NCBI GenBank assembly: GCA_973895155.1
Contig: OZ316896.1
Coordinates: 8,701,539-8,765,538 of the forward strand
DNA: 64,000 nt
Reading direction: 5' to 3'
Source of the DNA: Marsupella aquatica
Taxonomy: Eukaryota; Plantae; Marchantiophyta
Shown: piece by piece, positions 21,889 to 58,800 of the stretch
Layout of the letters: each line of letters begins with the position of its first letter
Position numbering within the stretch: position 1 is the stretch's first letter
Program-made: the position numbers and the translations under genes
The notes under the pieces: generated by a model
Database searches by the model: none
Told to the model about the DNA's origin: nothing
The model's input: only the letters and a program-made list of their open reading frames with translations

Positions 21889-22305
21889 CTAGCCCCGATT
21901 ACCCGTTCTTTGAACGTGAATAGCGGAGAGTACAATAAAAGAAGTATCAAAATATATTTTTGATTCATATTCTTTGAAGATTAATGAAATGATAAAAAAC
22001 CCATCATTTTAATAGTCATATATAATATATCATTCTCCTTGATGTCCAGAGGCTTTTTGTATGCACATCCATGTTCTATGCACATATGTTGTGGTGGGGC
22101 CATATTACCTATATATTTTTAATGTAAATATTTAAAAATTATCACATAAAACTGGCATGTATATACATCATAGTCATGATGTCATAAGTTTTTCTCATGT
22201 ATATGATGACCATGCACATGATGACCATAGAGTTACGGTCTAGAGGCTTCACTCTAGACCCTAGCTTGTGAAAAGTAGGCTGCAGTTCGCGCTTTATTAG
22301 TAAGA
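21889..22305 (-). mobile_element. Non-autonomous Helitron, family B, uninterrupted copy
   Basis: On the - strand it starts A|TCTTACTAATAAAGCGCG and ends with hairpin CGTTC-AAA-GAACG plus CTAG|T. A second copy is at 44865-55981. Confidence 0.88.
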
Positions 22306-23006
22306 TTGATTCCATAGTAGGGTCGTTAGTATTTCACTTGTTATTCTTCTTAGTTTTGTTTTAGTGTTTTTTGTGTTTTAATTATATTTTTTATATAAGC
22401 GATAAAACAAACTGATGGCAAAGTAGGTTTGATGTTTACTCTTAGCATGATGTCTTGGTTTATAATTTTCTTAAGATTACTTTAAAAATATTTTCAATTA
22501 AATTCACATTTATAACACATGATTGTGCTGTGAGATTGTCAGTCAACTATTTGTTGTTGTTAGACTAATGTTTTATTAACGGTTCTTTTAGCAGTTTTTA
22601 AGGGAGTTGAGTTGTATAGAATCATCACTAAACATCAATAAATGTGGCTCGTATTGCAATTTGCTTTCCAAAGCGTTGATGTGTTGTAATCCACCTATCA
22701 AGGTAAGAGATAATAGAATGACACTCATAGTAAAAAGTCTGGAAATTATCAACCTATAAGTGGCTTGTAAACAGTCTGCGAAATGATGAACAAACAACAA
22801 CAGATGTTCAAGAAGCAATCAATGATGATATTGTAATTGTGAAATGAAGACTTCTATAAGTTATTTCATGAACTCATAGTTGTAAAATCCTTCTAGAAGA
22901 ATAGGGAGTTCATGTCCACCCTAACTTTTGAATGAATAAGACAAGGTATTCACAAGATACTAAAGAGAAATTCTTGCATAAGTATCTCATTTCTCCTCCA
23001 ACATCA

Positions 23007-23340: not shown

Positions 23341-25268
23341 TATCAAGCATACCCAACTTTCCAGACCAAACATTGAGGACCCTTATGAGCATGGCTTTTG
23401 GAGTCGTTAGGTATCTCAAAACTGAAGGGCTGTATTCCCAGTCCCAAAATATGAGATTCATGTTTTTTTTAATCAAAATCCACTTTCCAGCTTATACCCA
23501 AACTTTAGTGTTTTATACTTTTGGATGATCTATTGCAAACTGTCATACTGCCAAAGAACAAGAAGTTTCCATCAGGGAGACGTTGTGACAAAGGAAGGAG
23601 AGCCAGTTAAGGGAAGACAATGGAATTGAAAAATGAAAAAGTGAGTCTGCCATGACTTTGTTAGACAAGGTGTTTCTAGTTGGGTTCGGACATTAGAGCG
23701 TGGCTGTGTCATCACTTAGTCTCAATGTAATTGCGGGTGTAATTGTGCTAAATTCAGACTCACTTTCCTTCTCCAACTTAGACATTACCTTTGTGTAGTT
23801 GTTCTCAACTTATATATATATAAGTGGTCTAATGAATTAAAAGTTGTAATGTCTTTGGAGAAGGAAAGTGAGTAATCCTCTACCCTAACTTGTGGATAAG
23901 CTACAACATTCGCTAGCACTAATACCTATTTCAAGGTGATAATTTATAGAGGTCGGATAGCCTACCAACTAAAATACAATGAGTAGAAAATGACTTTCTA
24001 CTACGAATGTAAGTTTACTTATTATTTTATTGTCTGTGTGTTAATGTCGTAGGGTCGTTAGTATTTTATTTTTTCTTCTTGTTAGTTTATTTTTAGTGTT
24101 GTTTGTGCTTTAATTACATTTTTATATAAGCATGAAACAAACTCATGGCAAAGTAGTTTTGATGTTTAGTGTTATTACGATGTCTTGGTTTATAATATTT
24201 TAAAGATTGCTTTACAATTATTTTGAAGTCAAGTCACAGTTATAACACATAATTGTGCTATGAGATTCTAAGTCAACTATTTGTTGTTGTTAGATTATTG
24301 TTATATTGACGCTTCTTTTTAGCACTTTTAAGAGAGTTGAGTTGTATAGAATGAACATACTTGTATTACGGAACAGCAATAAATGTGGCTTGTTGATGTG
24401 TAGTAATCCACCTATCAAGGTAAGAGATAATGAATTGACACTCATAGTAGTTAGAAATTTGATTTATATAGTCGTTCTCAAAAACTCCATTTCAACAAAT
24501 CCACATCATCAAGCTAATTAATCAGTGTACCTGCCTAATAGAGGATGACTTCATTTTTGCAATCTTTCACTAGTGCCCTGAATTCTAGTAAAGCAATACT
24601 CTGATTCCCTTGCACTTCCAGATGTTTTGAGTATTAGTATTAGTTCCCATATTTGAACGTAACTAGAGATATAAATAAATATTTGAACATAAATGCCCCA
24701 TATTGTTGATTTGGTTCATTATTTGACAAAAAAACATTTTATAGCTAAGCTTTCAAACTGGTATGTTGTGACATGGCGTAAAGCCTTGAAGACGCATGGA
24801 TTAGTATGCAAATTCACCTCAGTAGCAACTGGTCGATGGATTACAGATGGCTCTCTTCTGTCCAGATTCAGCCATTTTGGGGGGTTTACAATAAATGAGA
24901 AGTTTACTTAGAAAGATAGTAAGCTACCACTTTTCAGTTCCTGTCTTATAGTCTGCTGGCTCGCATTTGCACATTATAGTTGACATGACTCAGCAGTCCC
25001 AATATAGTAATAGGTACGAAGCTTTTCTTCACTATATCCAACAGTCATGCATGTACAACTTAAATATAGTAACAGGTACGAAGCTTAGTTTAGCCTTGCT
25101 TTGCGCTTCATAGAATAGAATAGAGTTTTAATGTCATTTTATTTTTCAATGTCCTTCTTTTCCCGGTGCATCCCTTGTATTTTTCATACTAGACCTACAA
25201 AAGAAAGATTCTAGTATTAGAATTTGTTTTCTCTATTTTGTTGTTAAGATAGTACATAGTAAGTTTAT

Positions 25269-28200
25269 TGTTGAGCATAGACAACATTCGTAACAGCAAG
25301 CCCATGAACCATCCAACGCACAATAGTCGACACAGAGAGATACGTGGTTCACCTCCACACGAGGCTACGTCCACGGGAACACACAAGAGCTTTACTGCAC
25401 TCTAGGCCGACCGGCCATACCAAGCATCCACAGCACAAGCTCTCCCTATCTCTCAACTAGCTCCGTAACAATGAGCCTAAGTTCCACCAGGGTCTGGCAT
25501 CAGCCCTAGCTATATGCACAACAGCACTACCGCTAACATTAGCTAAGCCCTAACCCAAGTTAGCCTAAATGTAGTTAGCTCATGAGTCACAAGACTAGAG
25601 CAATATCTAACAAACTTCCCCTTGACTCTTGTCTTGGGGACTGAACTAAATGCTACCATATGGAATCATCAGCGGGAAATTCTAGACAATCACCAAACCA
25701 GGTCTCCCCCTAAAAACCACAAGGGTTAACTAAGGGTTAACTAGAACTAAGCCGTAGCCTAACAGGAATGAGTAATCCATATACAAATAGTCACACATTG
25801 CTAAATAACTCTACGTGCACTACAATTGCAAAACCTGCAAAGTAGCACGGTGTCTTGAGAAACTCTCCAAAGGAATCACTTTGGTAAAGGCATCAGCGGG
25901 ATTGAGCTTTGGACCATCAATCTTGACTAGCTCAAAAGTTTTATCAGACACTGCTTGCCTGATAAAATGGTACCTGATATCAATGTGCTTCACCCTGCTA
26001 TCCATCACCTGGTCAGCAGCCAAGTGAAGAGCACTCTAACTATCACAATTTAGAGTCATTTTTCCATGCTCTAAACCCATCTCTGCGATCAACTTATCCA
26101 ACCAAATTGCTTCCTTTGCTGCTTCTGCTGCTGCAACATACTCTGCTTCTGTAGTAGACTGAGATATGCACTTCTGCAAGGTAGATTTCCAACTGATACA
26201 TCCTCCTCCAAGAGTGTATACAAACTCAGTTGTAGACCTCCTTGTATCCAGACAGCCTCCATAGTCAGAATCTACATAGCCAACTAACGTTCTATCTGAT
26301 CTCGCATCAAATAGTAATCCATAGTCCTGTGTTCCTTTCACATACCTGAGAATCCATTTCACAGCTTCCCAGTGTACTTTCCCTGGATTTGACATGAATC
26401 TGCTGACCTTGCCCATCGCTAGGGCCAAGTCAGGTCTAGTACAAGTCATCAAATACATCAAACTGCCTACTGCCTTCTCATAAGGAATCTTAGCCATCAG
26501 ACCTTTCTCCACAGCATTTGTAGGAGAGAAAGCCGATGATAACTTGAAATGTGAAGCTAAAGGAATACTCATTGGCTTACAGTTCTCCATGTTGAATCGT
26601 GCAAGTACTTTTCTCGCATACTGGCCTTGACTCAAGCACAACTGTCCAGTCTCAGAGTTCCTAAAAATCTCCATCCCTAAGATCCTCTTGGCCTTACCAA
26701 GATCCTTCATTCTGAATTCAACACTCAATTTTGCCTTGAGACTGTCAATCTCAAATTGATCTTTAGCCACAATTAGCATGTCATCCACATAGATCACCAG
26801 AATGATGAAACCAAATACATCATTCTTGACTGATTTCGTATACACACAAGGATCATACACCATCCTTGTAAAACCTTGAGCAAGCATGAAATCATCAAAC
26901 CGCTTGTTCCATTGTCTGGGAGACTACTTCAATCCATACAAGGACTTGAGCAATCTGCAAACTAAGTTGTCTTGGCCTTTCTTCATAAAGCCTAGTGGCT
27001 GTCTCATGAAGATCAACTCTTCCAAGTTGCCATAGAGAAAAGCAGTAACAACATCCATCTGATCCATCACCAGACCAAAAAACACAACAAGCTCACACAA
27101 GATCCGAATTGTGGAATACTTAGCCACCGATGAAAAGACCTCATTGTAGTCCACTCCTTTCTCCTAAGTGAACCCCTTGGCAACAAGCCTTGCCTTGTAG
27201 ATTTTATCTCCACCCTCTGAAGGACTGTCCTTCTACTTGTAAATCCACTTGTTGTTCACCACTTGTTGACCTCTTGGAAGCTCCACTAGCTCCCATGTCT
27301 TGTTGTCACTCAAAGATTGCACCTCCCTCTGCATTGCTGCATTCCACTCATGCTTCTGCTCTGAAGCACAAGCCTCATCAAGATCAGACACCATTCTGCT
27401 GAGGAGCATAACTTGTTGTGAGATGGCGGGTAATCCCCTGCTCCTTACAATACGTTCCAATTCACCAGAACTGTATTCACCGCCATTATCTGATCGAAGA
27501 TATCTCACCTTATTACCAGTCTGATTCTCTACTTGGGCTTTCCACTCCTTAAAAGTGGCAAAAACATCAGACTTATTGTGTAGAAAGTATATCCACACAT
27601 ACCTTGAGTAATCATCAATAAACATGACATAGTATAACCGTCCAGAATTTGAGGGAGTAGGGGCTGGATCCCACACATCACTATGTACATACTCAAGTAC
27701 TTCCTTGTTGGTGTGAGTTCCAACTCCGAAGGGTTTCCTGTGCTGCTTCTCTAGCACACAGTGCTCATAAAATTCCAACTTACAAGATTGCAAATTAGAA
27801 AGTAATCCTTTTTTCTGAAGAATAACCAAACCTTTTTCACTCATGTGGCCCAAACGGAAGTGCCACAGCCGGGCCGTCTCCTCATGAGATAAGGTTACAT
27901 TGTCTTCATGACAGACTACACTACCCTCCAAAATGTATAGATTGCTATGTCTCTTTCTCTTCAATACAACTTTAGTACCAGTTGAAACCTGAAGGACACC
28001 ATTAGCAGAACTCCACTGATGGCCATTTGCTTCTAAAACTCCAAGTGAAATGAGATTTTTCATCATGTTGGGAATGTGTCTCACATTCCTCAACGTTCTT
28101 ACAGCACCATCAAACATCTGAAATCTTACAGATCCAAGTCCAAGAACTTGACATGGGATTCCATTTCCCATCAACACTGACCCGTTAGAAACCGTGTAAG

Positions 28201-29750
28201 AACAAAAAAAATCTCTCCTAGAGCAAATGTGAAAAATACATGCACTATCTAGAATCCAGTCATCACTACCTAGATTTGACAGTACGTTGAGAGCATAACC
28301 TTGACATCACAATATGTCATCATCATTGATTAAATCTACCTCATGCGAGCTCGATGCTGCGTTAGCAAATGCAGTAGGGACCTTTACTCGACAATCCCTT
28401 TTCATGTGGCCAAGCTTGCCACAATTCCAACATGCAAGAGGCTTCCTCTCTTGCGATTTCCCTCTGGATTTAGATCTCCCCCGTGATGTAGATCTAAACC
28501 TGTTCTGCCCATTCGTGCGCTGCGCTGCTCTCCCACGGTTCACGTTCAGCGCAGTGCTAGAAGATGTGTTTGTGATTGACCCAGCTTCTTCTGAGCATCA
28601 TCAGACAATAAAGAGCTCACCACCTCATTATACGGAATGGACTTCAGATCTCTATACAAGAGCACCTATTTCAAGCCCTGATATGATGGCGGTAAGGAGC
28701 TTAGCAGAAGCAAGGCCTTATCCTCATCTTCAACTCCTTTTCCTAGGTTTGACAGATCCACCGCTAGATTATCAAACTCATCCAGGTGATCCTGCATCTT
28801 GCTCCCTTCCTTGAGCCTGAGGCTCATCAAGAGAGACTTCTTGTACAGCCGGTCTGACGCATCTTCCCGGTAGTACTTCTCTCTTAGAGCCTTGAACAGT
28901 GACGCGCAATCCACATAATCATCCAACTGCTTGATGATGTGTGGCTTGAGATATAGCATCACTGCATTGACAGCAATCACCTGCTCCTGTCTCCACTACT
29001 TCACATAAATCTCCTCTCCATCATACTGCTCTCGCGAGGAAAGTAGATGAGCTAGGCCCATGGCCCGTAGAACACCCTTCACTTGTTTCTCCCACAGCAA
29101 GTAATTAGTACGACTATCATACTTCTCCACCTCAAACTTCACTCCTCCAAATCTAGCCATCTCCCTCTTCTTCCCAACTACCAACAACTCTGGTAGTAAG
29201 ACAGCTTCCTCCACTGCACGCCGCACCGGTGATCGTACCGGTGTTACTAGTTCCTCCTCAAACGGTAGCAGCTCCTCCTCAGACTCTCTGTCTGACCGTT
29301 GCGATCCTGAAGCTCCACCGATGCCAATTCTTCCAGTATCCTCCGAGTCACTCATATGAAACAATCACCAAAAAATGTCACCTCCCAGGCATGCTCTGAT
29401 ACCACTTGTTGAGCATAGACGACATTCGTAACAGCAAGCCCATGAACCATCCAACGCACAATAGTCGACACAGAGATATACGTGGTTCACCTCCACATGA
29501 GGTTACGTCCACGGGAACACACAAGAGCTTTACTACATTCTAGGCCGACCGGCCATACCAAGCATCCACAGCACAAGCTCTCCCTATCTCTCAACTAGCT
29601 CCGTAACAATGAGTCTAAGTTTCATCAGGGTCTGGCATCAGCCCTGGCTATATGCACAACAGCACTACCGCTAACACTAGCTAAGCCCTAACCCAAGTTA
29701 GCCTAACGGTAGTTAACTCATGAGTCACAAGACTAGAGCAATATCTAACA
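25269..29750 (-). mobile_element. Ty1/Copia LTR retrotransposon, 4482 bp, non-functional (stops, frameshifts, integrase deletion)
   Basis: 344-bp LTRs at 25269-25612 and 29407-29750 (TG..CA, about 14 mismatches by eye), TSD TTTAT, tRNA-iMet PBS TGGTATCAGAGC (29393-29404) and a PPT next to 25613. Domain order is gag (CWNCGKLGHMKRDC) - PR (WILDSA) - IN (WHFRLGH, HSDVW, RSDNGGEY) - RT (YVDD) - RNase H (YVDSD, TEAEY). Confidence 0.97.
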
Positions 29751-42605: not shown

Positions 42606-45074
42606 ACCCCCCCTCTTTTTTTCATTGCCTCCCTGATTGTCACCTCTCCCCCTTTCTCTTGGGCCGCCTCTCCCTTCTTCCCCCCTTCCCCCGACCCCTC
42701 CTAAAAAAAAAGCAACTAAAAGCAAGGGTGTGCCTTTTCTCCTTTTTTTTCCTCTAATTGCCTTATTATTAGTATCTTTATTTTCACTTTCCTTTGTTCC
42801 ACTTTGTCTCATCCCTTATCTTGTACTTATGGGAGGGTATATACTATTCATCCCTTCACCCATGGGTGTATATCATTAATTCCCCTCCCTATTTTGATCT
42901 TTATGTCTCATAGTTCTTATCCCCTCACAATGGTGTCCCAAGTGCCCCATTCTAATGGCAACACATGGCATTCACATAGAGCCTATGTCACACATACCCC
43001 CTTATTAGAGAATCTTTGTGCGTACCAAAATACTTTGTCTTGCTTGGGTTAGAGATATTGTTTTTGACAAATGAAAGGCTAGGATGAAAGGGCTTATAAA
43101 TCAAGGGTCATGAGATCTTCCCTCTAAACTTGGTTTTTGTAAACCTATTACATCCACTTATGGCCGGATAGGGTATTATAATAGTAAAAACATTATTGCC
43201 CACAAAAAAATTATTTCAGAGCAAGAGATTATGTGAATTCCAGATACCTCCAAAATGGCAAAATGGTTATACATCCCTTCAGAATTTATATATAGAATAA
43301 TGATGGTCTGGGAAATTTGATGTGGGTGCTCGCCATGTTAATTGCACTCAGGAAGGGCATTATGCCCCGTTAAGTGTACATATTAATTGCACTTATATAA
43401 CGCCTTGCTGATTTTTATCTTTGCAAGTTGCGGGACATTCATGGAGAAGAATGCACTGGTCAATATTTTGATAAGCTATCATGGACATCATCCTCTACAA
43501 TATAAAACTAGAAATCTCTTAGTCCTTGGAGTGTATTGAGATCCCGTCACCAAACTATTATAGGCAATAACTGTTCTCTCTTTTTGGGGCCTTATGGCAC
43601 ACAATGCCTTGTACACAGGATTTCATCATACACAAAATGTGCAACCAAATTGCACCCTCCATGTTAAAAACAAGGGAAGAATGGGACTCGTTTTGGGGGG
43701 CACTGTTGCACACATACCAGATGTGAAAACAAAGTGCACCCTCCATTTAAAAAGGCTCTTACAGGACACATTTTTCGGGGCACTATGGCAAACAAGCCTC
43801 ATACACAGGATATATTATGTACAAAATGTGCAAACAAATGGCACCCTCTGTAAAAAAAAAGGTTTAGCCCGGTTTTACACTTATGGGGTTGGCACTAGGA
43901 GAGGGCCGGCTGTACCTCACGTCGCCCAATCCGTTGGCACAGACAGCCAGACAGGCGCAGCCGTGACCGCATTCAAGGCCCCAAGGTCCTCAACGCACTG
44001 CCGTCAGAGAGTTCAATTCGCGGCGTCGAAGATTTGCCGTGACGGATGCAGTTGCCAGCCACGACAGCGCCAGGTGCAGAATTTGGGGTCCGGCCTTTTT
44101 ACCCTGTAGGGGACATGATTTGTCAGTTCCCGCTCTGCACTGCGCTGTGCATGACATGTGGCCAGCTGTGTCCCGGTACTGAGATCCTGTCAAATGGGTA
44201 ACCGAGGCAAGCAGGTAGGCGCGTTGGTCCCCACGCCATGGTTTTGTGTAAGGTAACCCAGGGCCTGTTCTGGGGCGGGTCATTTTTTAATGTGTTTTTC
44301 TTTGTCGCTATGGTGGGGTCCATCACTTGCCTGAAGCAGAAAATGCGAAGAAGATTCCTTGTCTGAATTTGCTGGACTATTCTGTGATCGTTAGATCTCC
44401 CCAAATTTAAAGATAATGGTCCGATTTTGGCTAATATATCTCTCTAAATTTAACCCTCATGATAACGGCTACTGCGTCCGTGGCTAGGTGGGAAAGTTGC
44501 TAATCAAGACAAAAAGCATGGTTCCCTTGTGCCAAAAAGTAGTAAAGACTTTTTGAGTGAGGTGGAATCTGGCTAACTTTTGCCACATAAAAAAAACTCT
44601 GTTTATGGGTGAGTCCTAGGGGGGTTAGAGGGTCTTTTTCTCAATACCGAAAATTTGCCAAAGTCCACCTCACTGAAAGTCTCCCCACGGTCTAGTAAAC
44701 TTTTGCCAAACTTTTTGTGTTCGAGTAGAGGATCTCCAACCCTTACTAGAAAGTCTTATCTTACCTACTGTAGCTGTTGAGTACTAAAGTACAAACAATC
44801 ATGTCCAACCCACCCATCTATTGCAACTCTATGGGATTTCCAGGCACTGGGTTTCTTATTACTACTAGCCCCGATTACCCGTTCTTTGAACGTGAATAGC
44901 GGAGAGGATAATAAAAAAATTATCAAAATATATTTTAGATTCATATTCTTTGAGGATTAATGAAATGATAAAAAACCCATCATTTTAATAGTCATATATA
45001 ATATATCATTCTCCTTGATGTGCACAGGCATTTTGTATGCACATCCATGTTCTATGCACATATGTTGTGGTGAG

Positions 45075-45790
45075 TGTCGTGACATATAGTATCGTAGCCA
45101 TAGTGTATCAAAAATATACAAGTCACCGGCAATGCATATGTGCAAGCTGCTAGCAACCAACATCCTTAGAAAAAGTCCAATCACATTCACAAGTGCCAAG
45201 AAAAAGCAACATAGGTGGTATGTACGTAGTGGAGGTGTAAACCTCTGTATATAAAAGGCGTGATAGAAACAAACGTACTGAAATCGAATCAAAAACCGGC
45301 GAGATGCCAAGATCGGCCGGGAGCATCTAACGAATCACTGTGTGAATTCCGTGTACGGAACCGACGAGCAGCCTCTGAAAAACTTTGTCTCACAGCGATT
45401 CAAGAAGAACTGAAAAATGGCAAAGAAAAACATGCCCTAAGTAGGACCGGGTCCAGGCATCACACTAACAAACACCTTTGCTTCAAGAACGGCCCAGACT
45501 CGCTACAAGAACATGACACTAACTCAAGTAGTACACTAGCCCTAACTATATACTAGCGGGCATGCGAGGGACATGCCGATGTGCACAAGAGGCACTGTCC
45601 CTCGGCATGACAGCTGTCGTGACATATAGTATCGTAGCCATAGTGTATCAAAGACATACAAGTCACCGGCAATGCATATGTGCAAGCTGCTAGCAACCAA
45701 CATCCTTAGAAAAAGTCCAATCACATTCACAAGTGCCAAGAAAAAGCAACAGAGGTGGTATGTACGTAGTGGAGGTGTAAACCTCTGTAT
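45075..45790 (-). repeat. 3' terminal repeat block: B1 (45615-45790), gc, A2 (45251-45612), B2 (45075-45250)
   Basis: B1 and B2 are both 176 bp with about 3 substitutions. A2 matches 55476-55821. A G7 tract (45791-45797) directly precedes B1 on the sense strand. Confidence 0.93.
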
Positions 45791-45829
45791 CCCCCCCAGA
45801 CCACAGCTAAAAGGAGGGCTGAAGAAATG

Positions 45830-47816
45830 TCAGGTAGCACGTGGAGCACAGGAAGGGCAAAACCATAACCCTTCTGGCACCTGGGTAAGTTCAGGCCGAA
45901 GGCAGAAAAGATGGTACCCTCCATTGCAATTATCACACAGCAGCATCTGGTCAGCATCATCAATTCGCAAACACACTTTGCAAGGGTAGTCCACAGGTGG
46001 AATCCAGGTAGAAGTCACAATGGTGGGATCCAGGTTAGGCAGATGACAAGGGGCACAATTCTTGGCATTGTCAGCAATTGTGCGCCCATCTGCCCCTTGT
46101 AACTCTAGCACTCCAGACGGTCGAATAGCTTTAACCCTGAGAATAGTATGACTGGTAGAGGTGTCCAGGGTGTCGTTAGCTTGCCGCTGCAAGTACACAA
46201 AATCTCCTACATCAAACTTCCTGACCTTGGGCTGAAAAGTGCCCCCTCGTGTGTGTGCATAACGTAGTGTGTCCCTATGCTGTGCAATGGCCAAATTCTC
46301 CATGGCCATGGGCATAACCCTCCTGAATAGGGCAGCCCTCTCAGAGATCACATCAGACCAAGTCACAGCTGAATCCAAGTCCACCACCTGAAGCATGTGA
46401 GCAGCAATAGCAGAAGGTGGAACTGGGTGATGACCAAACAACAAGAAGTAGGGAGAAAAGTTAGACAGTGATGCATGTCTGGACATCCTATACCCCATGG
46501 CAATGTAGGGTAAGGCCAGGTCCCAATCCTCCTTGTTTTTGGTGAGGCAGATCTTCCGGAGGCCCTTCTTGCATGTCTGAACCATGCGCTCTGCCAAGCC
46601 ATCTGCTTGTGGGTGATCTCGTGACGTTCGGCGATGATCAATGAGGGCCTGATCAAACAGCTCCTGGAACTCTCCTCTGAACTCTGATCCCTGGTCAGTG
46701 AGACATTCTGCACAAGCTCCAAAGCGGCTGAGAACTTGTTGTAGGAATGCCTGGCTGGTGCTACGGGAGGTCTTATCCGGCAATGCCACAAGTTCTATCC
46801 ACTTGGAGAAATGCTCTATCATGATCATGATGTAGAGATTACCCCGAGACGTGAGGGGTAATTCTCCAGCCAAATCACATGACCAGCGATAAAACATGCC
46901 CTGAATAGGGAGTGGATGAAGTGTGGGTTGCCGAGATGTGAAAGAAGTCCTCACCCTATCACATTGTTCACACCGGGCAATAACATCTTGAACCTGGCCA
47001 TGCATGCCTCTCCAATGATAATGAGGGACCAAGAGGCTACAAGTCCTCTTAACGCCAAAATGACCAAGCTCAGAATGTACCTTACGGATAAGGCCAACCC
47101 TCTCATGAATGGGTGGAACCACCACTTCCCTGTCTGGCAAGCAGCGCACGAGATGATCTCCCTTCCACAAGTAACACTTGGACCTTTGCTGAATTCGGTC
47201 TCTCTGGGTTGTAGTAACATGTATGGGGTACTCCCCATGCTGCAAAAATCTCAGAGTGTCGCTGTCCTCCCATATGTCCACCACAGGTTGGTCAACGATG
47301 TAGCATGGCAGCAAAGCAAGATAGGTAGATGCATGAAATGTAGGCAGGATGAAAACCTGGTCAAAATCCTGCCGTGCATCTGAGGAATCATCAGAGGCAA
47401 TCAAAGGGCTGCGGGACATAGTGTCAGCATTTTGATGTGTCACACCAGGCCTATGAATTACCTCAAAATCATACTCCTGGAGTATGAGTGCCCAACGAGC
47501 AAGCTTGCCAGTAAGCTTGTCGTTGGTCATCAACCACTTCAAGGGCTGGTGGTCGGTGTAGAGAACAAACCTGGTCCCATAGAGGTAGGGCCTGTAATGT
47601 ATTACAGCCCACACAACAGCAAGGAATTCACCCTCATAAGAAGAATAATGACTCTCTGCCTGATTGTTGCTCCTGGATGCATAGGTAATGACGTACTCTT
47701 TACCTTCCTCATCATGCTGGCCCAGAATGGCACCAATCCCAAGGGCACTCCAATCTGTGTGTAGCACAAAGACCTTGCTGAAATCAGGTCTTCTCAGCAT
47801 CGGGTATTCTGAGAGC
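45830..47816 (-). CDS. RNase H - DDE integrase - PHD finger, open frame
   Basis: RNase H: LHTDWS, YEGE, YTDH. Integrase: VHSELGHFG..CEQC, CDLAG, TDQGSEF, LAERMVQ. Terminal PHD C4HC3: CKVC...LLCDNCNGGYHLFC...WFCPSC (45848-45982). Confidence 0.95.
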
Positions 47817-48473
47817 CCCCAGCCTTTGTAAACTAAAGAGGTATACGTGCGTACACCCCCCTCCCTAGTACCCCTTATTATTTTTGGAAGCCTATAAAAA
47901 TTTCTCTTGTTATTCTTAAAAACTTAATTTTGGAGAATAAATCTGCCCCTTTGAGATATTATAATTTCACATTTTACACCATTTATGAAAGCCTTGAAAA
48001 GTTATAAATTCATCATGTGCAAACGGTTCTAAAACTGACGGGAGTGTTTTGGAAGGGTTTTGGGTACATACATTTTTGTGTTCGTGACCCTTTAACCCCA
48101 AACTTCAACTTTGGGGCATTTCTGAACCATAGGGCAGGGTAGTCAGGGTTCAAAAGCTCCAAAGTCCTAAACTACTCTGAATCATAGATGTTGCAAACAT
48201 AATTATATGTCATATACACATGTTCCAATAAAGGGTGGCCACAAGGACCAATCCTATTGTGACGCGTGTCACATCCATATTACATCACCTCTTGAAGCAT
48301 ATTAACTTGGGCGACATTTATATAAGCCTATATTAGTTAGAAAGGGTTCTTTGAATAAAACCATCCCTTGATATTTCTAAGCCAATTATAAAAATTAATC
48401 TCAAATCAGATTTTTTGCACCCTTCATCCGTTCGCACGTCCAGCCCATTATTAATAATGTTGGGGGCCCAAGG
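47817..48473. mobile_element. 657-bp AT-rich non-autonomous insertion with 8-bp TSD between RT and RNase H
   Basis: ctgagagc is duplicated at 47809-47816 and 48474-48481. Removing the insert restores LKEKLSEYPMLRRPDF. Short inverted cagcctt/aaggctg motifs lie near the ends (hAT-like, uncertain). Confidence 0.85.
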
Positions 48474-49480
48474 CTGAGAGCTTCTCCTTCAAAGTGGCAA
48501 ATGCTGCCTCAGCATCTGTACTCCATGTCCAAGTCACATTCTTTTTCAACAAAGCATACAATGGGTGTGCAATGGTACTGAAATCTTTGATGTAGATCCG
48601 ATAGTAATTGCACAACCCAATAAAACTCCTCAAAGTGTGAACATCGGTAGGAGTGGGCATTTCCAAGATGGATACCACCTTGGCCCAATGAGCCATGGTT
48701 CCATTTGGAAGAATGCGATGCCCAAGATATACTACTGATCTGACAGCAAATTCACACTTCTTGGGGTGTATCTTTAGGTTCACCTTCTTAAGCCTCATGA
48801 ATAGCTCCTCAAGGTCAAGTAGATGCTGGTCAAATCCTTTGCTGTGGACCAACACATCATCAATGTAGCATTTCAGAAACTCAGCACCTTGAAGAACCTG
48901 GTCCATGACTCTTTGAAAGAATATGGGCGCATTCTTCAAGCCAAATGGCATCACCAACCACTCCCATAGTTGGTTACTACCATGGAAAGTTGTTTTCTTG
49001 CGGTCTTTTGCAAGCAGCAAAATCTGGTTGAAGCCTTGCCTTAGATCCACAAGAGTGAAGATGTCTGAGTCTCCAATACTGTCAAATAGCTCCTCTGGCC
49101 GCGGCATGGGGTACCTGTCCTGGGGTGTGACCAGGTTCAATGGCCTGTAGTCCCCACACATGCGCTTCTCTGTCCACAATCCACTGGAATCCTTCTTTGC
49201 TGGCATCACTATAGCTGCCGCAAAATCTGATGTAGATGGCTGAATAAGACCAGCTTCATAAAGCTCTTGGCACCTCTCATCCACCAGCTGCCACTCATGC
49301 TTACTCAAACGGTGTCTCCGCCTGAAGATAGGTGTTTCATCAGCCAACTCAATGGAGAACTGCATAGTTTTGCACTTACCCAAGTCCTTCATAGAGAAAG
49401 CAAACACATTCTCATGCTTGAGGAGCAAATTCAGCAGCTGGTCCTTTTGTCTTTTACTCAGGTGGTTGCCCATGATAAAT
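48474..49480 (-). CDS. Gypsy reverse transcriptase domain
   Basis: RMCGDYRPLN, VDLRQGFNQI, MPFGLKNAP, YIDD, YLGH and SFIGLCNYYR. Confidence 0.95.
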
Positions 49481-49824
49481 GTGTAGTTGGCAACACTAGG
49501 AATAGGACCTAATGTACTCGTGCTTGAAGAGCCAGAAGTGCCAACCTCTCCACTGTCCAAGCTGCTAGCATGCTGCTGATAAGGTGATGAGGCCTCTCCA
49601 AGGCCTGTTGTACCTGCTGATCTGAAGTGGTCCACACCATGAAACTCAGAAATAATGTCAGCCGCATTACAAGGGACCTCCTCCCCCCCAACACTTGGAC
49701 TGAAGTGGTGAGTGTTGGACAGAGGTAAGTGCACCTGGTCTGGATGCCATGCAGCAGCACTGTGGAGTGGTAGGGCTGGAGCCCCTAATGCTGGAGGAAT
49801 GTACATCTGAAAAAGGATGCAAGT

Positions 49825-50770
49825 GACCAGAAGCCAAGTGAGAGCATTGAGATCCATTACCCTGCCAAGTAAAGCATTCCTGGCCAGCCTGGTGATTTTG
49901 GTGTGACCTGTAGTACCGGGTTGGAAGCCCATAGCCCGTTCTCTCTCCTCAGGACTAGGTTCATCCCATGTACCGGTAGAATGTCGATAAACCAGACCAG
50001 GACCATCACCCTGAAAAGCATGTGCACCTAGAAAGGACACAAATGTAGGCCAAGCAGCATGGGGTTGTCCAATGGTATTGGCTGGATACCAAGGTGCTGG
50101 CTCTTGCCGTGTAACTGGTTGCAAGAACTGTCAGGATCCAAAATCTGGTCCACTGTAAGGTTAGTGTCCCTGGATGTGTGGTGAAGAGCCATCTCCAGCA
50201 AGGAAAGTGGTGCAAGGTTAGTCCAAAAGTTACGAAGACGATGTGCATAAGAACCACAGTGCACTGCATCAATGAGAAGGGGTGGTCCCAAGTAGTGCTG
50301 GACCACACTGAAATCCTCTTTGACCTGTGGACGCTGGTCAAACTGAGATGGAGTATTCTCAATGATATAACCAACAGCAGGATAAAGGGATTGAGCCCAG
50401 GTGAGAATCTGAACCAATGCTGTGAAAAGGCCAGAACGAGAATCATGTAGTCCAGCACCGTGACCAGCAGTTGAAAACCCTTGGCATTCCCAACCAGCTA
50501 TGATCAAATCAAGGGAGCCAAGAAGGGTTAAGTGTCGGTGTTGGACAAGCTGGATATCTGGAGGGAAGAAAGAAAATGTAGACTTCCATGCACTATGTGG
50601 AAACTGCTGGGGAAATCGCTCTGAAAATTCCAGCAGACGGGATTCAGCCACTTGCCTTGCACTTGGATCAACATCCACATAGATGTACTGCTTCACCACC
50701 ATGCCAAACTTTAGGAGAGCTTCCAGGCCTGTAGAAATGCCACCAAAAAGCTCAAGCAATGTAAGGCCAT
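49825..50770 (-). pseudogene. DNMT3-like C5 cytosine DNA methyltransferase domain in the pol polyprotein (one frameshift near 50120)
   Basis: Motif I LLELFGGI, II YVDVD, III DI, IV DLIIAGWECQGFS, V SGLF, VI IIENT, VIII IDA..HRLRNFWTNL, IX ERERAMGFQPGTT, X RLARNALLGR. Order and spacing follow the DNMT3 catalytic domain. Confidence 0.92.
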
Positions 50771-51139
50771 CTGAAGGAGGAGTCCATGTAACTGGTGCGC
50801 TCAAGATTGGGGCTATTAGTTGTCCATTATGCTGCCCAAGGTCCTCAAATTTGTGCAATGCAGCCACCAAAGGTCTATGGGCTACTTGGAGCCGTTGTAC
50901 CACCTCTGGTTGATGATCCACGTTGCTGGAAAGTGCTGCTATACGTGCAGCAGCATGTGCAGTAGCCACCTCATCATCATCCTCCTCAATCCAATCCTGC
51001 AATGGGTGGTTGACATAGGTAGCTGTGTGCACTACTTTGAACACACAGTGGTGAGCCATAGGGGTATGGGCACCATGCAAATCAAGTGGAATGTATCCCA
51101 AGTGTGAGCCATCCGTATGCCAATCAACTCTGTAGTATA

Positions 51140-51500
51140 CATGCTCATGCCAGTTGTCAATGGTAAAACCTGGTGGGAACAAAGCCTCCTGGCCAATGAG
51201 CACATCATACGTAGTGGCATTGGTAACCAAACATCTGACTGGGAAATGCAGTTCCTAATGTGTACCTCCATTAAAAGTGAGAGTGAGTAAAGTAGAACTC
51301 TCACCCAGCACATCCTCCACAGTGCCACTAGCAGTCCGAATGTGCCACCTGGATTGCTGTAAATGATCAGTCAGCAGTCCCATCTTCTTGGCAAACTGAA
51401 TGCCCAAAATTACTGGTTGAGCGCCTGTGTCTAGCATGACCACCTGAGGAGTGTGACCCTCCAACTTGACTGCTGAATTCCTGTTGTCAACAATGGCAAT
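51140..51500 (-). pseudogene. Retropepsin aspartic protease (stop at 51255)
   Basis: VMLDTGAQPVIL...IRTASG...YDVLIG. Confidence 0.88.
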
Positions 51501-52152
51501 GGTGGTGGAAACTAAAGTCCTGTCACTAGGCACCACTTTTGGCAAATGATGAGGTACCTTGTGAAGGGAGTTAGTGTCCACGGTCTTCCCACTCAACAGC
51601 ATAGCCAGGGAAAGATGAAGTAGCATGACCAGAATCAAGTGTAGCTCTGGTCACACAATTTGCAGCAATACTGTCATCTCTACCACTGGAAATCGGTACT
51701 GGGATAGCCAAACCAGTGGAAGCATGCAATGGAGAAGAAGAAGGTCCAGTATATACATGAGATTGGACCTCCAAAACCGGTGTCACAGGGGCTGATGAAG
51801 AATGCAGTGAGCCCTCTAGCGCTCTGATGACAGTTCTGGCATCTAGCTGTAAATCATGGCAACTGAAAAGTGGAGTGGTAAGAATCCTTTGTGCCATACC
51901 GGAGGTGAAATGCTCAAGCAGCTCAGGAAAAACAACTCCCTGTGAAATGTCAGCAGCACCTGGTGGTGGAATGGATGTAGCTACAGCTCCCTCCCCCCTC
52001 GCCAACAAGGTGCGCTCTTCAGCAAGTGTGAGTGGCTGAAAAGACTAGGGCATGACAGCCCGAGCTCCCCTGGCTCTAGTCATAGGACCAGCAGCAAGAC
52101 CATCAGCCTGTACAATGCGGCGTGTGGGAGCAATACGGGAGGCAGCACTGGC

Positions 52153-53673
52153 CTATTGGGAAGCAAAATAGGAAGGACAGAATGAATCTAAAAATTCTGC
52201 TGTAAGGCCAGGCTGTGTAGCAGAGGACAGCACACACTCACCCATATGAGCATCAAATGGCAAGCCATAGAAAGAGCGGGGTAGAGGTGCTGAACTGTCA
52301 GTGGTGCCTGGGCCAGGGATGGGTTGCACGTGACCAGCCGGTTGAGAAGGACCAGCAGAGGCAGTGGACTTGCCTTTGATGTTGGCAAGTTGGGCATGTA
52401 AGGACTCAACCTCATGAGTCAGAGACTGGAGTTGAGTTGCCTGTGCGTTGTGAGCCTCCTTCTGAGCTGGTTGCTTCTGTTGCTGCTTGGGCAATTTGTT
52501 AGCACTGGATGCTTTGCCACTGGAAGGAGGAGAAACTGATGCAGTAGGAGCCCTCCTAGCTTGTGGGGGAGTGGAAGCAAGAGTAGGATGAGGGGTCTAC
52601 TATCGTAGCTGCTTCATCTCTGGGAATTTGGCAAAACAAACTGCCTCCAAGTGGCCCACTTTTCCGCAAAAATCACAAGACAGGTCCTTAGCAACAATAT
52701 CACATTCATTAGCCTTGTGATTGGGGTTACCACAGTAGTTGCAAGATGGCAGCATGAAAGTAGCATGTGCTGGCTTGGTCTTGGAACCATACTGTGGCAC
52801 ACGGGAAGGGGTGGTCAGTGTAGGGGCAGTAGCCTGGTACCTGGATCGCGGGGGACGCGCAATACTGGCCTCATAATGTGCATGGGCCAACTCAAGTTTC
52901 TCAATAGTGTCATAGACATTGAGCAGGGTGTAGCTGTCTCCAAACTCTGAGAATACTTGTTGCAACACTTGCGAATGGAGAGCTGGTGTGCCCTCCAATG
53001 CGCGAAGATAGCGATGAGCAGCTTCTAGGTCAGTGATGCTCTGGGTGTCTTCCTTCAGCTTGAGAAGCCGGCGATACAGCATCTTCAATGTTTCATCGCG
53101 TTGCCTCACAAAGGTGGCCAACTACAGGATTTTGTCAGCACTCTTGATTGGGAATTCCAATTCAAGAACCTGGAAAAACTCAGCCACTGGATCAGCAAAG
53201 GCAGGGGAATCAATGGTGGGAGAAATGCCTGATGTAGCCTGTGCCAAGACAATGGGAGTAACTGGTGCAGTGGTGGGAACTGGAGTAGGAGGGGAAGTGG
53301 CAGGAGCAGCAACATGGGCTGCAATGGCATTCTGTAATGCCAGTTGTGAGGCAGCCGCAATTGCAGTGGCATAGGCAGGGTTAGGCAATTGTGTGACAGC
53401 AAGCAGCCATTGAGAATGTTGCTCATGCACATCCAAAGCCTTGTGGTGCACATACCTGGCTAGCTGCTTAAATGCAAAAGCATTTGTGAAGTTGCTGCCA
53501 TACTTCAACTCCAATTCGTAAACGACAGTGTAGAAAGTGGATTTGAACTCACGCAAAGAAACAGTGCCTGGCCGCCCACTGAAGTGCTCAATGCGGCCAA
53601 ATGAGTGACTGGCATCCATGCTGTATGTTGGTGAAGCTGGAACAATCACTGATGCAGAAGGAGAAAAAGGCAA
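52153..53673 (-). pseudogene. Gypsy gag with two CCHC zinc knuckles (in-frame stop at 53122)
   Basis: CNYCGNPNHKANEC and CDFCGKVGHLEAVC; FVRQRDETLKMLYRRL resembles the retrotransposon gag motif. Confidence 0.85.
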
Positions 53674-54109
53674 AGAAGTGATAGCAGGCTTCGGGGTAGA
53701 GGTGAAGCGACCGCCAAATGTAGCAGAAGGGTTGCGTGGTGTGGGTGCTGCTGCTGTCTACTGACGTCATCAAAATTGCCGAGACTCCAATGAAATTGGC
53801 ACCCACGGTCGTGGATCACTCCGTAAGTGGTACCGGGGTGTCGGTGGCGATGAGCTGCTACGACTCGGCTCCTCTGCTGACATGCTGCATGCTCACCCGG
53901 GGTGCCTAAATAAAAAATGTCCCCCTTCCCAGTGGTATGAGGTGCTGAGGGGAAAGAAACTGACAAGAAAAATGGGATCTAGCCCCAAGGCTAGGAAATA
54001 AGACCCACAAAGGAAACAACCGTGCGAGGCAGAAATGTGTAGAATGTGTAAGCGCTGAGAAACTGTCAAAGTCTATGCAGATGACATGTGGTGGCAGCAA
54101 AGAAATCCG

Positions 54110-54870
54110 GGAAGAATGGGCCCTTGAAAACATGAATAGGGGCCCCCCTTAAGTGTATACATTGGGCCCCTTTAAAGTGTATACGTCGGGCCCCTATGTG
54201 GACCCGAAAAAGGAAGGACCGGCCGGCACGGTGCCCTATGCAAGTAGTCGAGAACAAAGCAAGAGCGAACGGAAAAAAATGGGCACTGCAACACGTGAAA
54301 GGGGCCCCCTTAAGTGTATACACATCGGCCCGATGTGGACCCAGGAACTGGCAACAGGTCGATCGTCGCACGGCAAAAAACTGAGAAAGGCCGAAAAAGG
54401 GGAAAATAGCCGAGGCAAGCTCACAGGTGACCGGAAAGAGGAGAAAAGACGTCGCGAGGCGGGGCAAAAGAAACCGGGCCCTCTTAATGGCATGAGCCCT
54501 CCATAGGGCTTCGTGCCCCACCTTATGTGCTCCCGAAAAGGGGCTACGAACTCCCCTCCTCCTCTCCTTCAATGCAATTTGGGCCTCGTGCCCTGGCAAA
54601 AGACTCCCATGAGAGGAGTCAAGTGTACTCCCCCCCTTCAATGCTGACAGTGGGCTCCGTGCCCTGCAGAAGGACTCCCGAAGGGGGTCGTTAACTCCCC
54701 CTCCCTCCTTGAATCTTCATAGGGCCTCGTGCCCTGGTGACAGTATGCCCGAAGGCAAGGGAGTTGAGTGTACTCCCCTCCCCTGCTTCAATGTCCTTGT
54801 GCCCTCTCCTGGCACCCTCGCTCCCCCTCCTTCTTTAATGCAGCATAGGGCCTCGAGCCCTCCTTTCGCT
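54110..54870. repeat. Repeated motifs in the long GC-rich 5' leader of the Gypsy element
   Basis: gggcccc..taagtgtatac x3-4 and gggcctcgtgccct / actcccctcc x4-5. Confidence 0.7.
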
Positions 54871-55475
54871 TCCCCCTCCCCCTCCTTTCCTCACGCGTAT
54901 GCTCCTGCTCGGCTCCCCCTCTCCTCGCACTTAATTAAATGCTGGCAGAAATGAGAGGGCACGATGCCCTTTGCGCAGCCTGCCTCATGCGAGTCGTCGA
55001 CAACAAGGCGAAGGAAAGAAAAATAGCCAGAAAAGGGAGGCGCACAGAAAAATGACGGCCGGTGAGGAGAGAAAGAAAAACCTCGGGAGTGGGTAACACT
55101 AACATGGGCGTGCGGCCCTATGTGCGTGGTCGCCCCTCGGCCGTGTGCATACACAAAGGTGCGGCCTCCGGCTGCCAGGCGGCAAGAAAAGAAGGATCAA
55201 GAGAAGGGGCGAAAAGGCCCCCCTGAAATCGCAAAACCTCCCGGAAAGTGAGAAGCGCTCCCCTCGTCTCCTCTTGGGTGTACTCCGCTGGTCCGCAAAT
55301 TTAAGTGTATACACATAAGGGATGTGTATACAAAGAAAAATCTAACTCTAACTCCATCACTAGATTTTTCTTCAAATAAATTGCACTGCTGTCGACAGAA
55401 AGTGTTGACCGTCGCGAGCAATTGAGAAACACAGCGTTTCTGATCTTCTTCCCTTCACTCGGCAGTTCTTCTTGA

Positions 55476-55821
55476 ATAAAAGGCGTACTGAAATCGAATC
55501 GAAAACCGGCGAGATGCCAAGATCAGCCGGGAGCATCTAACGAATCACTGTGTGAATTGCGTGTACGGAACCGACGAGCAGCCTCTGAAAAACTTTGTCT
55601 CACAGCGATTCAAGAAGAACTGAAAAATGGCAAAGAAAAAATGCGCTAAGTAGGACCGGGTCCAGGCGTCACACTAACAAACACCTTTGCTTCAAGAACG
55701 GCCCAGACTCGTTACAAGAACATGACACTAACTCAAGTAGTACACTAGCCCTAACTATATACTAGCGGGCATGCGAGGGACATGCCGATGTGCACAAGAG
55801 GCACTGTCCCTCGGCATGACA
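55476..55821 (-). repeat. 5' terminal repeat A1 (346 bp) with TATA-like motif; no B segment
   Basis: Matches A2 with about 6 substitutions, a 1-bp indel and a 15-bp indel. Sense TAGTATATAG lies at about 55756-55765. Confidence 0.93.
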
Positions 55822-58800
55822 TGAGGCCATATTACCTATATTTTTTTTATGTACATGTCATAAGTTTTTCCCATGTATATGATGACCATGCACATGATGA
55901 CCATAGAGTTACGGTCTAGAGGCTTCACTCTAGACCCTAGCTTGTGAAAAGTAGGCTGCAGTTCGCGCTTTATTAGTAAGATATCTGGATTTAAAGGACA
56001 ATATACAGTTTTGACTGTCTTTTAGGTTAGTTGTTGGGTTTTCAAGATGTTCGTCCTACTTGTGCTGTGAAAACTGATTTCTAGTGTGGAGGCAAATTGT
56101 CCGGTAAGCGGAATCCCGCAGGCCATGTAAATACCCTGGCTAGTGAGGCTTTGGGCCCTGAAAAGCCAAATTTGAATCCCCGCCTGTACTACACTTCCAC
56201 CCTCACTTCCATCGTGCCACTTTTTGCTCTCCAGGTGCCAGAGCATGTGGGGAACTCGTCCTTCATTTCTTTGAACTGTCTCAGTGTAGCCATCACAACA
56301 GCATGAACAGCCCTCCTGTCCTTGAAAAAGTGACAATATGTGGATGCACCTTTGCTTGTGTGCTATAGCTCTTGATCCCAAGCTTGAATGGTGAGTCCTA
56401 AACTGGTACACAACACCATGGAATCCTAAACTTGCCACTCACTGATTTTACTGCCTTGCACATAGAGCAATTTGGAAATCAATATCAAAATTGGTGTTGA
56501 CAGACTAAGTATTTACTCTGTACATTAACCTTATTAAGGATGAAAGATAATCTTGAGGCTAATCAATGTTGATCAGCCCATGCACCTAGGGAGGTGCTGC
56601 CCACTGCCCGCTTGTACCTCACCCCCTATTGGGTTAAGTGCTAGTCACAAATAAAGCTGAGCATGAGCCCTACTCTGGTGCAGTGACAGGCAAGGTGGGC
56701 CCAGGTTCAAAAACTACTGGTAGTAATTTGAACCATTCTTACACACATTCCACCCAAAAGTGTGGATTTATTGGAGCTACCAATACTTGGAAACAATTTG
56801 CAGAGAGCAGGGCGTGGGCAGCTGACTACTCAAGGCTCATAATGAGCCTCAAGGTGCTTTTTGTCCTGAATGCATGCTTTGGGGATGGTCCGGTCTTATG
56901 GGTGAACCTGAGGGGGTTGGAGCCAGCATATTTTTAGTGGCAGAATTTTGCCCAAATTCTACTTCACTAATAGTCTTTGCCACTTATTGTGAAAATTTGC
57001 CAAAATTTTTGTGTTCCATTCTCCAGTTTTCTACCTACCCTCAGACCCCATTAGCCAGGATCTAATGGTTGTCCTTAACTCTAAGGAGATAGAATCTAGG
57101 ATAGAACAAACAAAAATTACACCAGGAAATCCATATGGATGATAATATTCTTACTAAATTTTCCTTCACCAAAAGTAAAATTTGTATAGCAAAAGAGGTG
57201 AAACCTTAAACTCACCCAGGTTAGAGCCCATGGGTTTCCTTGTGAGTCTTCAAAAAAGTATGTTTGGGTAGGAGCCACTGTCTTGATCCATGCCACTAAC
57301 AAAGAGATTTAAATCAGAGAAAATGGGGCCAGGCTGGCTGCAGTTCACGATTACAGCCTTTAATGTAATTATCACTATACTGAACTAAAGTTCAGCCAGT
57401 GCCAAACTGCACGGGTTTGAACAAAAAAGGAGAATAGAAAGTGGGTGATTGCGTTGCTTCCCCAACAGATTCACCTTTTAAATGCTGAAACTCAATCAAC
57501 TTTTGCTGAAAGCTAAGGATAGTTTAAACCATCTAAGTCTCTCCCATAAGAGGTGCCAAATGTAAGGAACTTTCAAGCATGGAGGGAGATTTGTCAGTCA
57601 ACTATTTTCAAAGAAAGTCAACTTTGATAGTCACTATCTTCCTCAGCACCCAGTGGAATCTGGTTTTGTTGGGTTGCTTAGAAACCACTTGGAAAGATCT
57701 TTCCATGAGCCTAATCCAGTAAAATTCCATTAAAAATTGAGAGACTTACAAATTTCAAAAGTTGACTGACTCATTTTCTTGCCACCTTCCACTCATCAGT
57801 GTAGTATGTACTACATGAGAAAAAGAAAGGGCTCTGGGTTGCAAAAAACATCCAAGCATCTTGACTGCAGACATTGAGGTCCATCCAAGCTCTTCCAAAA
57901 ATTTCATCAATCCAGAATATTATCTCACGTTTGTTTTCTCTAGTTGTGATCCATAGTATAACTCCTATCTAATCAACATGAACTCATTTTATTTATTTTT
58001 ATTTATTTTTAAATACACTTTTATTGACGAAGCCACCACAGCGAAGACCAGCAAGGCAGACAACAAACCAAACTGTGAGCCACATGCGCCAAAAAAAGTG
58101 ACTCAATGCCAGAACCATAACCATCCCAACGGATCACAACTCATGAATTCAACATGAACTCATGAACCATTGGGTTGGCAGTCTTTTTGTGTGTTATTCC
58201 GCTCCGGGTATTTGGATCCTTTTGGCCTTGTGTTTGCAGTCCGTGCAATTGGTCTCCTTCTGAGTTGTGAGGTAGGGGCTCTTGGTTTGCCTCTATCTAT
58301 TTAAATACCTTGCCTTTAAAGATGTGCCTAATTACCATACTGTCAAATTTTTATTGTATTTGTTCTACTGCAAGGGTTTTGCTATATGGGTACTTGGTTA
58401 TTGACTTCCATATGTCGCATGCTGATTGCTTGGAATTTTCATCTGGATGGTTTCCCCATCGACATTGTGCAGGATAGTGCCAACGGAAGAGACCATATGC
58501 TGACATGTGTCTTGTGCAGGACGGATTCATGGTTAACAATTCTCTATATTTGGCTACTACCATCTTCCCCCAAACAAAGTGCCTGGGCGTTGTGTTCAAA
58601 GTATTTTTTTTCTAAAAACACAACGTCATTTTAACACAACACTCGGGCGCTGTGCTCAAGATGTTACTCTAAACTGTTCTACATTGAGCACAAATAGTAA
58701 AACATTCAAGAAGCATATGCCAATGCCGATATTTAAACACAGCGCCCTGCAAGTACAAAAAATGGAAACACATAATCAAAATATGAATACAATGTCGGGG

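Follow-up and report, generated by a model that had tools for sequence, protein, structure and literature searches.

A Ty3/Gypsy retroelement with permuted ends in the liverwort Marsupella aquatica and a possible route of integration from an end-joined circle

A stretch of 64,000 nt from Marsupella aquatica (GCA_973895155.1, contig OZ316896.1, positions 8,701,539-8,765,538; the window, within which all coordinates are given unless another locus is named) carries on its minus strand a dead Ty3/Gypsy copy of 10,747 bp (45075-55821) with split and permuted terminal repeats. With A and B for the two repeat segments and int for the interior, its order is A-int-B-gc-A-B. The element is a Gypsy element by its proteins, its ends and its target-site duplication, yet not by the layout of its long terminal repeats (LTRs), and it represents a real, ancient and clade-wide variant of LTR retrotransposition. 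In the textbook view, retroviruses and LTR retrotransposons integrate from linear DNA that carries the attachment (att) sites at its ends. Here the integrase ends very probably lie inside the repeat, with the DDE integrase cutting an internal att site. That the ends of the complementary DNA (cDNA) are joined before integration, circle first, is a view towards which we lean. The full reading, to which we give a probability of roughly 0.5, is that this widespread green-lineage Gypsy clade, whose LTR already contains a circle junction, gave up the end-integration of linear cDNA and came to depend on obligatory integration from an end-joined circle opened at one chosen palindrome. Related loci in other sequence records are denoted by L numbers.

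Structure of the element and its insertion site

The repeats, the sites bounding them and the insertion site were located as follows.

55822-55825, no strand: 4-bp target-site duplication tgag, 5' side of the element
55476-55821, minus: A1, left terminal segment, 346 bp, starting TGTCATG; apparently a promoter part followed by an R/U5-like part
55608-55622, minus: putative self-primer CAGTTCTTCTTGAAT, at position 200 of A, where transcription presumably starts
55463-55477, minus: primer-binding site (PBS) ATTCAAGAAGAACTG, 15 nt, perfectly complementary to the self-primer and reaching into the end of A1
45791-45797, minus: G7 polypurine tract (PPT), immediately 5' of B1
45615-45790, minus: B1
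45613-45614, minus: gc spacer between B1 and A2
45609-45618, no strand: palindrome GACA-GC-TGTC at the B1/A2 join, the internal att site, resembling a circle junction; kept in L077 and L081-L084
45251-45612, minus: A2, 362 bp
45243-45259, minus: A2/B2 junction ccttttat/atacagag, the presumed joint of two cDNA ends
45075-45250, minus: B2, right terminal segment, terminating CACGACA
45071-45074, no strand: 4-bp target-site duplication tgag, 3' side of the element
about 21888-22306, plus: paralogous empty site of the host repeat, a control outside the element

A1 and A2 were 97.9% identical over 339 bp and B1 and B2 98.3% identical over 176 bp; compared with A1, A2 carried 15 additional bases close to its 3' end, flanked by two ACG. 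The B segment was missing at the 5' end. The paralogous empty site was 96-99% identical to both flanks and held a single TGGG where the filled site has TGAG...TGAG, from which it follows that a single insertion, with a 4-bp duplication, accounts for the full 10,747 bp. The TG..CA ends and the duplication, within the 4-5 bp looked for, are those of a Ty3/Gypsy element. Two complete terminal LTRs, with the PBS after the 5' LTR and the PPT before the 3' LTR, were not found in the window element, the integrated ends lying inside the repeat that is bounded by PBS and PPT. The layout, the ends, the tgag duplication, the repeat divergence of about 2% and the missing 5' B had been described in a first-pass annotation of the window and were all confirmed from the sequence; that annotation, sound on the layout, had overlooked the DNMT3-like domain described below, the self-primer and the 15 extra bases of A2.

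Distribution of the layout among relatives

Joints of the element's own family were read from Logan contigs of four runs from two studies, one of these runs possibly being the window's own source; such contigs lose rare forms. Eleven joints were listed from a longer table of loose ends. A was followed by the PBS in all four runs (agreement 0.97-1). Joints of B to diverse flanks were listed for three of the four (8, 14 and 13 contigs; agreement 0.41-0.47), and diverse flanks upstream of A for one (12 contigs). The A/B joint with one extra T was present in two of the four, at depths of 995 (X2) and 274 (X4). None of the 11 joints listed led from the PPT to A.

Further relatives were the best 80 of 478 metagenome matches (66-81% amino-acid identity), de-duplicated to 62 clusters; they come from a single scan and apparently from few hosts. 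Their 3' structure was BAB in 26 clusters, BA followed by other DNA or the contig end in 4, B followed by flank in 19 and a partial or cut B in 5, and B was not reached in 8. Neither A directly after the PPT nor the ordinary AB-int-AB form occurred in any of the 62, and a G-rich tract, judged by eye, stood immediately 5' of B in 52 of the 54 clusters with B. Both ends were present in 11 clusters. Eight of these were A-int-BAB (4-bp duplication exact in six, with one mismatch in two) and two were A-int-B with exact 4-bp duplications. The last, L014, was a third A-int-B copy without a clear duplication, in which GC stood directly before A, and AC and a 6-bp near-duplication followed B (3140-3160 and 12205-12215 of that locus); this is possibly an unprocessed end.

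A tree was built from integrase DNA, with L039 left out as misaligned; it was star-like, 24 of its 42 forks being open. The A-int-B copies were dispersed over this tree and did not form a separate lineage (16 changes against 14.5 under the null), and they would be dead ends, with the 3' R region missing. The first-pass annotation had predicted that AB-int-AB siblings would be absent and that A-int-B copies with 4-bp duplications would exist. The former was borne out by 0 of 62 clusters and 0 of the 11 own-family joints listed, the latter by the two copies above, and the layout is family-wide.

The distant loci L081-L087 come from records titled bacterial genome assemblies. By content they are eukaryotic retroelements with long open frames, and algal contamination of the bins is likely. 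L081-L084 (41-54% amino-acid identity) carried GACA-GC-TGTC in palindromes of 10-16 bp, 58-241 nt downstream of the G-run, and the contig of L087 terminated in the first half of the palindrome; about 0.04 such 10-mers would be expected by chance in these five loci. L085 and L086 stopped too soon after the integrase match to show the region. L082 (54% amino-acid identity) read B-gc-A-B and then flank, and the contig of L081, of which the first and last 127 bases were identical, spanned one int-B-gc-A unit. No relative was found among the 19 matches of a pattern search of viral contigs or the 26 matches of a reverse transcriptase (RT) scan of genome contigs; a pattern search in five genome records gave eight matches, of which two were known sites and six appeared on inspection to be chance-like or coding sequence. 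At 1780-1929 of L012, the B end CACGACA abutted an inverted internal part of A, which suggests autointegration or insertion into a sister copy.

Primer site and reverse-transcribed unit

The complement between self-primer and PBS measured 15 nt in the window, 15 in L027, 16 in L059 and 13 in L081, lengths reached by 0, 0, 0 and 2 of 3000 shuffles, respectively, and the letters of primer and PBS covaried between families. L018 and L081 each had a TATA-like box some 30 nt ahead of the primer; none was found at that distance in the window copy. Self-priming in Tf1/Tcn1 elements has been called from the same complementarity signature, according to the relevant passages of PMC6317226 and PMC4600332, and by sequence complementarity the window element has the self-priming PBS of the Tf1/Sushi/Tcn1 type. 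Folding of the 5' RNA was predicted to form a 14-bp primer/PBS helix in the best structure; the fold was set aside as support because its global z-score was only 0.02.

The primer site follows A1 and the G-run directly precedes B, so that the repeat which PPT and PBS delimit is B-gc-A. The first-pass annotation had named the same unit, which now rests on the self-primer PBS after A1 and the G7 tract before B1. Within this repeat the TG and CA integrase ends stand as CA-GC-TG, inside the palindrome GACAGCTGTC. Self-primed reverse transcription would likely place B-gc-A at both cDNA ends. In L081 the boundary between the A end and the primer site (7410-7416) and the B start (6948-6954) share the 7 nt CACTTGA, and in other families the shared nucleotides are AT, which suggests a built-in microhomology between the presumed cDNA ends.

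The two repeat junctions

The spacer between B and A was 2 bp long in 30 of 30 clusters (GC 9, AC 9, GT 6, AT 4, other 2), and in 28 of the 30 it was GC or a product of its decay by deamination (C>T, G>A). The A/B junctions (n=26) were blunt in 9, with AT-microhomology in 7, with an additional T in 2 and of other kinds in 8, among the last two large deletions (L049 and L057). Such variation suggests scars of end-joining, the origin proposed for the A/B junction in the first-pass annotation. In L059, another of these eight, B2 started 137 nt upstream at a second GG/ATAC, which suggests the product expected of aberrant plus-strand priming. In two clusters, L048/L050 and L037, A2 halted at the position inferred for the cDNA end and was followed by unrelated DNA.

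The distance of B1 to its own B2 was 0.089, compared with 0.133 to the B2 of others (24 loci; permutation p about 1e-5; L041, with a partial B1, and L019, with a B2 cut by the contig end, left out). Junction type changed 11 times on the poorly resolved tree against 12.1 under the null (P=0.31).

Coding content

A Pfam scan of the window open reading frames (ORFs) gave the domain order gag zinc knuckle, aspartic protease, C5 DNA methylase, RT, RNase H, H2C2, rve integrase and PHD.

52600-53757, minus: gag with zinc knuckles, interrupted by in-frame stops
51255-51650, minus: aspartic protease (PF13975, PF13650)
50028-51254, minus: C5 cytosine methyltransferase, frame-broken (PF00145, E=9.6e-7); DNMT3-like by comparison with PMC5890265
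48475-50130, minus: RT ORF of Ty3/Gypsy type (PF00078; top PDB matches 4OL8 and 7Q5B, Ty3-G)
47809-48474, no strand: secondary 666-bp insertion between RT and RNase H, with 8-bp duplication GCTCTCAG
45830-47800, minus: RNase H, H2C2, DDE integrase and PHD finger; triad D309, D369 and E404 of a 656-aa stretch

The pol order of protease, RT, RNase H and integrase, the Ty3-type RT and the DDE integrase with its H2C2 finger are all those of Ty3/Gypsy elements. Among solved structures the RNase H-integrase stretch matched Ty3-G best and foamy virus integrase second. A chromodomain after the integrase had no match in the Pfam scan of the window and relatives, and a PHD finger was found there instead. 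No tyrosine recombinase family was matched in the 28 ORFs scanned (window 14, L018 7, L081 3, L084 2, L087 2) and the DDE triad is present, in agreement with the first-pass annotation, which had called a DDE integrase. L081, apparently a complete unit, had no further ORF of at least 170 aa. DDE integrases usually have 35 residues separating the second D from the E; the spacing was 34 in the window (integrase core, 46570-46700) and in L081, and this may be linked to cutting of the internal site.

The copy is dead, with in-frame stops, frame changes and the 666-bp insertion between RT and RNase H. This insertion is AT-rich with imperfect inverted ends, was absent from the family contigs of three of the four runs and is possibly a non-autonomous DNA transposon. 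Among 7996 candidates scored, 530 were protein relatives; those with names came from liverworts (Calypogeia fissa, the best at 79%, and Riccia), Klebsormidium, Closterium and chlorophytes.

The C5 DNA methyltransferase (DNMT) lies inside the Gypsy pol, as in KnitGypsy-Dnmt3. In the window and L081 it lies after the protease and before RT, whereas L084 (122-9916) and L087 (3061-9516) carry it between RNase H and integrase; the clade may have shuffled its domains or captured a DNMT more than once. The residue before the DNMT catalytic Cys is usually P. The catalytic motif was WECQG in the window (about 50490, minus strand), in 20 metagenome loci within L007-L073 and in L087; it was WPCQG in L081 and WPCQD in L084. 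A DNMT was present in L081, L084 and L087, that is, in each distant relative long enough to show one (L083 was too short upstream); relatives bearing the palindrome without a DNMT were sought, and none was found among these three. The DNMT may help to mark or protect one of the two sites.

L084 also contained an additional ORF of 713 aa (10033-12174) between pol and PPT, without a Pfam match. Elsewhere in the window, a Copia-like element (25268-29750; 345-bp repeats, 96%), a Helitron-like helicase region (16764-19141) and a KH-domain-like host gene (4621-6279) were recognized by eye from ORFs and self-matches.

Proposed route of integration and its alternatives

Transcription would begin inside A1, and the first 11-12 nt of the RNA, complementary to the primer site after A1, would fold back onto it and prime. 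The minus strand would transfer to A2 and the plus strand would be primed at the G-run, as in standard LTR reverse transcription and with the boundaries observed here, to give BA-int-BA. The A end and the B start would next be end-joined with variable loss, as the variable junctions indicate, to form a two-LTR circle; the enzyme and the timing of this step are assumed. The DDE integrase would cut each strand of the palindrome GACA-GC-TGTC in the 5' repeat just after CA; the resulting stagger would leave 2-nt 5' GC overhangs, the same ends as those of 3' processing. Strand transfer of these ends, by the presumed chemistry, would produce the observed termini, the 4-bp duplication and the order A-int-B-gc-A-B. 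A-int-B copies could arise by cutting of a one-LTR intermediate, by cutting of both sites or by later B-B recombination. A choice of the 5' site might, speculatively, come from timing, as after plus-strand transfer the 5' repeat would be duplex after about 0.5 kb of synthesis and the 3' repeat after about 9.5 kb.

Several observations weigh against this reading. The first-pass annotation had the circle opened at one B-gc-A site. Opening at either site predicts ABA-int-B as often as A-int-BAB; the count among the 11 two-ended clusters was 0 against 8 (binomial p=0.008), nor did the second copy in L016 carry ABA at its 5' end. The two sites are therefore not opened equally, and a bias beyond a symmetric circle is needed. 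The own B2 was nearest to B1 in only 12 of 25 cases and the own A2 nearest to A1 in only 5 of 8, among old and decayed copies. Within one supported clade 5 of 8 rows had microhomology junctions, compared with 2 of 17 elsewhere, and the sisters L006 and L007 share this type, so that junction type may be partly inherited or lineage-biased. L014 lacks a clear 4-bp duplication. The 80 metagenome loci are the best matches of one scan with apparently few hosts, and Logan contigs drop rare forms. All of the evidence is DNA sequence, read from assemblies and contigs.

A covalent circle, joining after integration and joining by RT lead to the same product, and the product alone cannot tell them apart. 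The circle suggested in the first-pass annotation is thus not proven, since cutting first and end-joining afterwards yields the same copy. That sequence of events is the least unlikely of the alternatives: the integrase would cut the 5' palindrome of linear BA-int-BA and insert both halves with a 4-bp stagger, and the host would end-join the A end and the B start in the chromosome without any circle. The same variable junctions would result, the large deletions of L049 and L057 fit chromosomal repair, the A ends of L048/L050 and L037 joined to unrelated DNA resemble failed repairs, and a timing bias toward the 5' site fits naturally. It would also break the chromosome at each insertion, yet 18 of the 26 junctions are at most 3 nt from blunt and all eight two-ended BAB copies retain matching flanks. 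We consider it rather unlikely that RT makes the A/B join, either by an end-to-end template jump or by a route like the circle-junction template model of PAT/Ngaro, with B2 in the RNA and B-gc-A as the template, after which the DDE integrase would cut the regenerated junction. The layout is that of the split-repeat tyrosine-recombinase elements, as far as these are described in the passages available of PMC5890265. There is microhomology between the presumed cDNA ends (AT for the window and the L001-L080 families, 7 nt for L081), and joining by RT could account for the single product class and for some clustering of junction type. Ordinary LTR-type priming is favoured instead by the canonical PPT, the covarying self-primer in the middle of A and the TATA-like boxes of L018 and L081; the variety of junctions, with long deletions and an alternative plus-strand start, and the lack of a significant overall phylogenetic signal of junction type also speak against a join by RT.

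Integration by a tyrosine recombinase acting in trans, as in DIRS/PAT/Ngaro, is very improbable. The repeat layout alone would suit it; the TG..CA ends, the 4-bp duplications of unrelated sequence and the conserved DDE integrase do not, and neither a recombinase in the 28 ORFs of the five loci scanned nor another ORF of at least 170 aa in the apparently complete L081 was found. It is scarcely credible that the window copy arose once, by rearrangement of an ordinary AB-int-AB element, or that it is an artefact of assembly. None of the Logan contig pieces listed spans the locus. Against this, the ordinary form is lacking in all 62 relative clusters and all 11 own-family joints listed, the same layout is found in independent assemblies down to 54% amino-acid identity (L082), the repeats differ by 2% and an indel, and comparison with the empty paralog shows that the insertion was clean. 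As a general explanation a one-off rearrangement is refuted by the family-wide layout and the 0 of 62 ordinary LTR forms.

Comparison with known systems

The first-pass annotation knew of no description of the layout for a DDE-integrase element. One exists: de Mendoza et al. 2018 (PMC5890265, legend of Fig. 4c) report DIRS-type repeats with Gypsy domains for KnitGypsy-Dnmt3 of Klebsormidium nitens. KnitGypsy-Dnmt3 is like the window element in its Gypsy domains, in the DNMT within pol and in the DIRS-type repeat layout; the passages available of this paper say nothing of duplications, primer, PPT, palindrome or mechanism. The host here, in contrast, is a land plant. RNase H/integrase proteins of K. 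nitens, possibly those of the KnitGypsy loci, were found at 50-55% identity. A streptophyte Gypsy-DNMT3 is mentioned in a 2026 preprint (10.64898/2026.05.21.726589), the repeat structure not being given in the passages available. No account of permuted ends, self-priming, circle cutting or a mechanism for such an element was found in the literature searched, which covered few subscription journals and no Repbase. The layout is thus already in print, and the window element is a land-plant member of a family noted once, whose integration route is undescribed.

Tf1/Sushi and the plant Tcn1 resemble the window element in that the PBS complements sequence inside the 5' repeat and no tRNA primer is evident; according to the passages available (PMC4600332, PMC6317226) they are chromoviruses with two ordinary LTRs, whereas a PHD finger and a DNMT are found in the window element, whose ends are permuted. 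The split direct repeats A-coding-B-A-B are common to the window element, KnitGypsy-Dnmt3 and PAT/Ngaro/DIRS. PAT/Ngaro elements (for example SymbioDIRS-Dnmt3) are further alike in that the internal B-A junction matches joined ends and in the circular intermediate inferred for them. They differ in that the window element has a DDE integrase in place of a recombinase, the reverse of the tyrosine recombinase without DDE integrase that marks PAT/Ngaro/DIRS, together with a protease, a Ty3-type RT, TG..CA ends and 4-bp duplications.

A foamy virus study reportedly found integrase cleavage of the two-LTR circle junction. In the part of PMC4372172 available, two-LTR circles are described as long regarded as dead ends, with exceptions only as a side route, and HIV-1 pre-integration complexes as able to cut and integrate such circles at the palindromic junction. 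The likeness lies in an integrase that cuts a palindromic CA-NN-TG junction into integrable ends (PMC4372172, same part). For retroviruses such cleavage is a side route, and ligation forms the junction that is cut, whereas here the palindrome is inherited inside the repeat and the ligated junction lies elsewhere; internal cutting appears to be obligatory in the family of the window element.

Significance

Software that seeks two equal terminal LTRs would likely overlook such elements or bound them wrongly, and permuted-end Gypsy elements may therefore be undercounted in bryophyte and algal genomes. The clade places its att sites inside the repeat, so that the full element is rebuilt only once the true cDNA ends are joined, and the findings suggest an integrase that cuts an internal palindrome of 10-16 bp. 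Integration from a circle junction thereby becomes testable in a system that seemingly depends on it. If the proposed route is true, this would be the first DDE retroelement with a circle as its normal precursor, and its layout would have converged on that of DIRS/PAT through a different enzyme.

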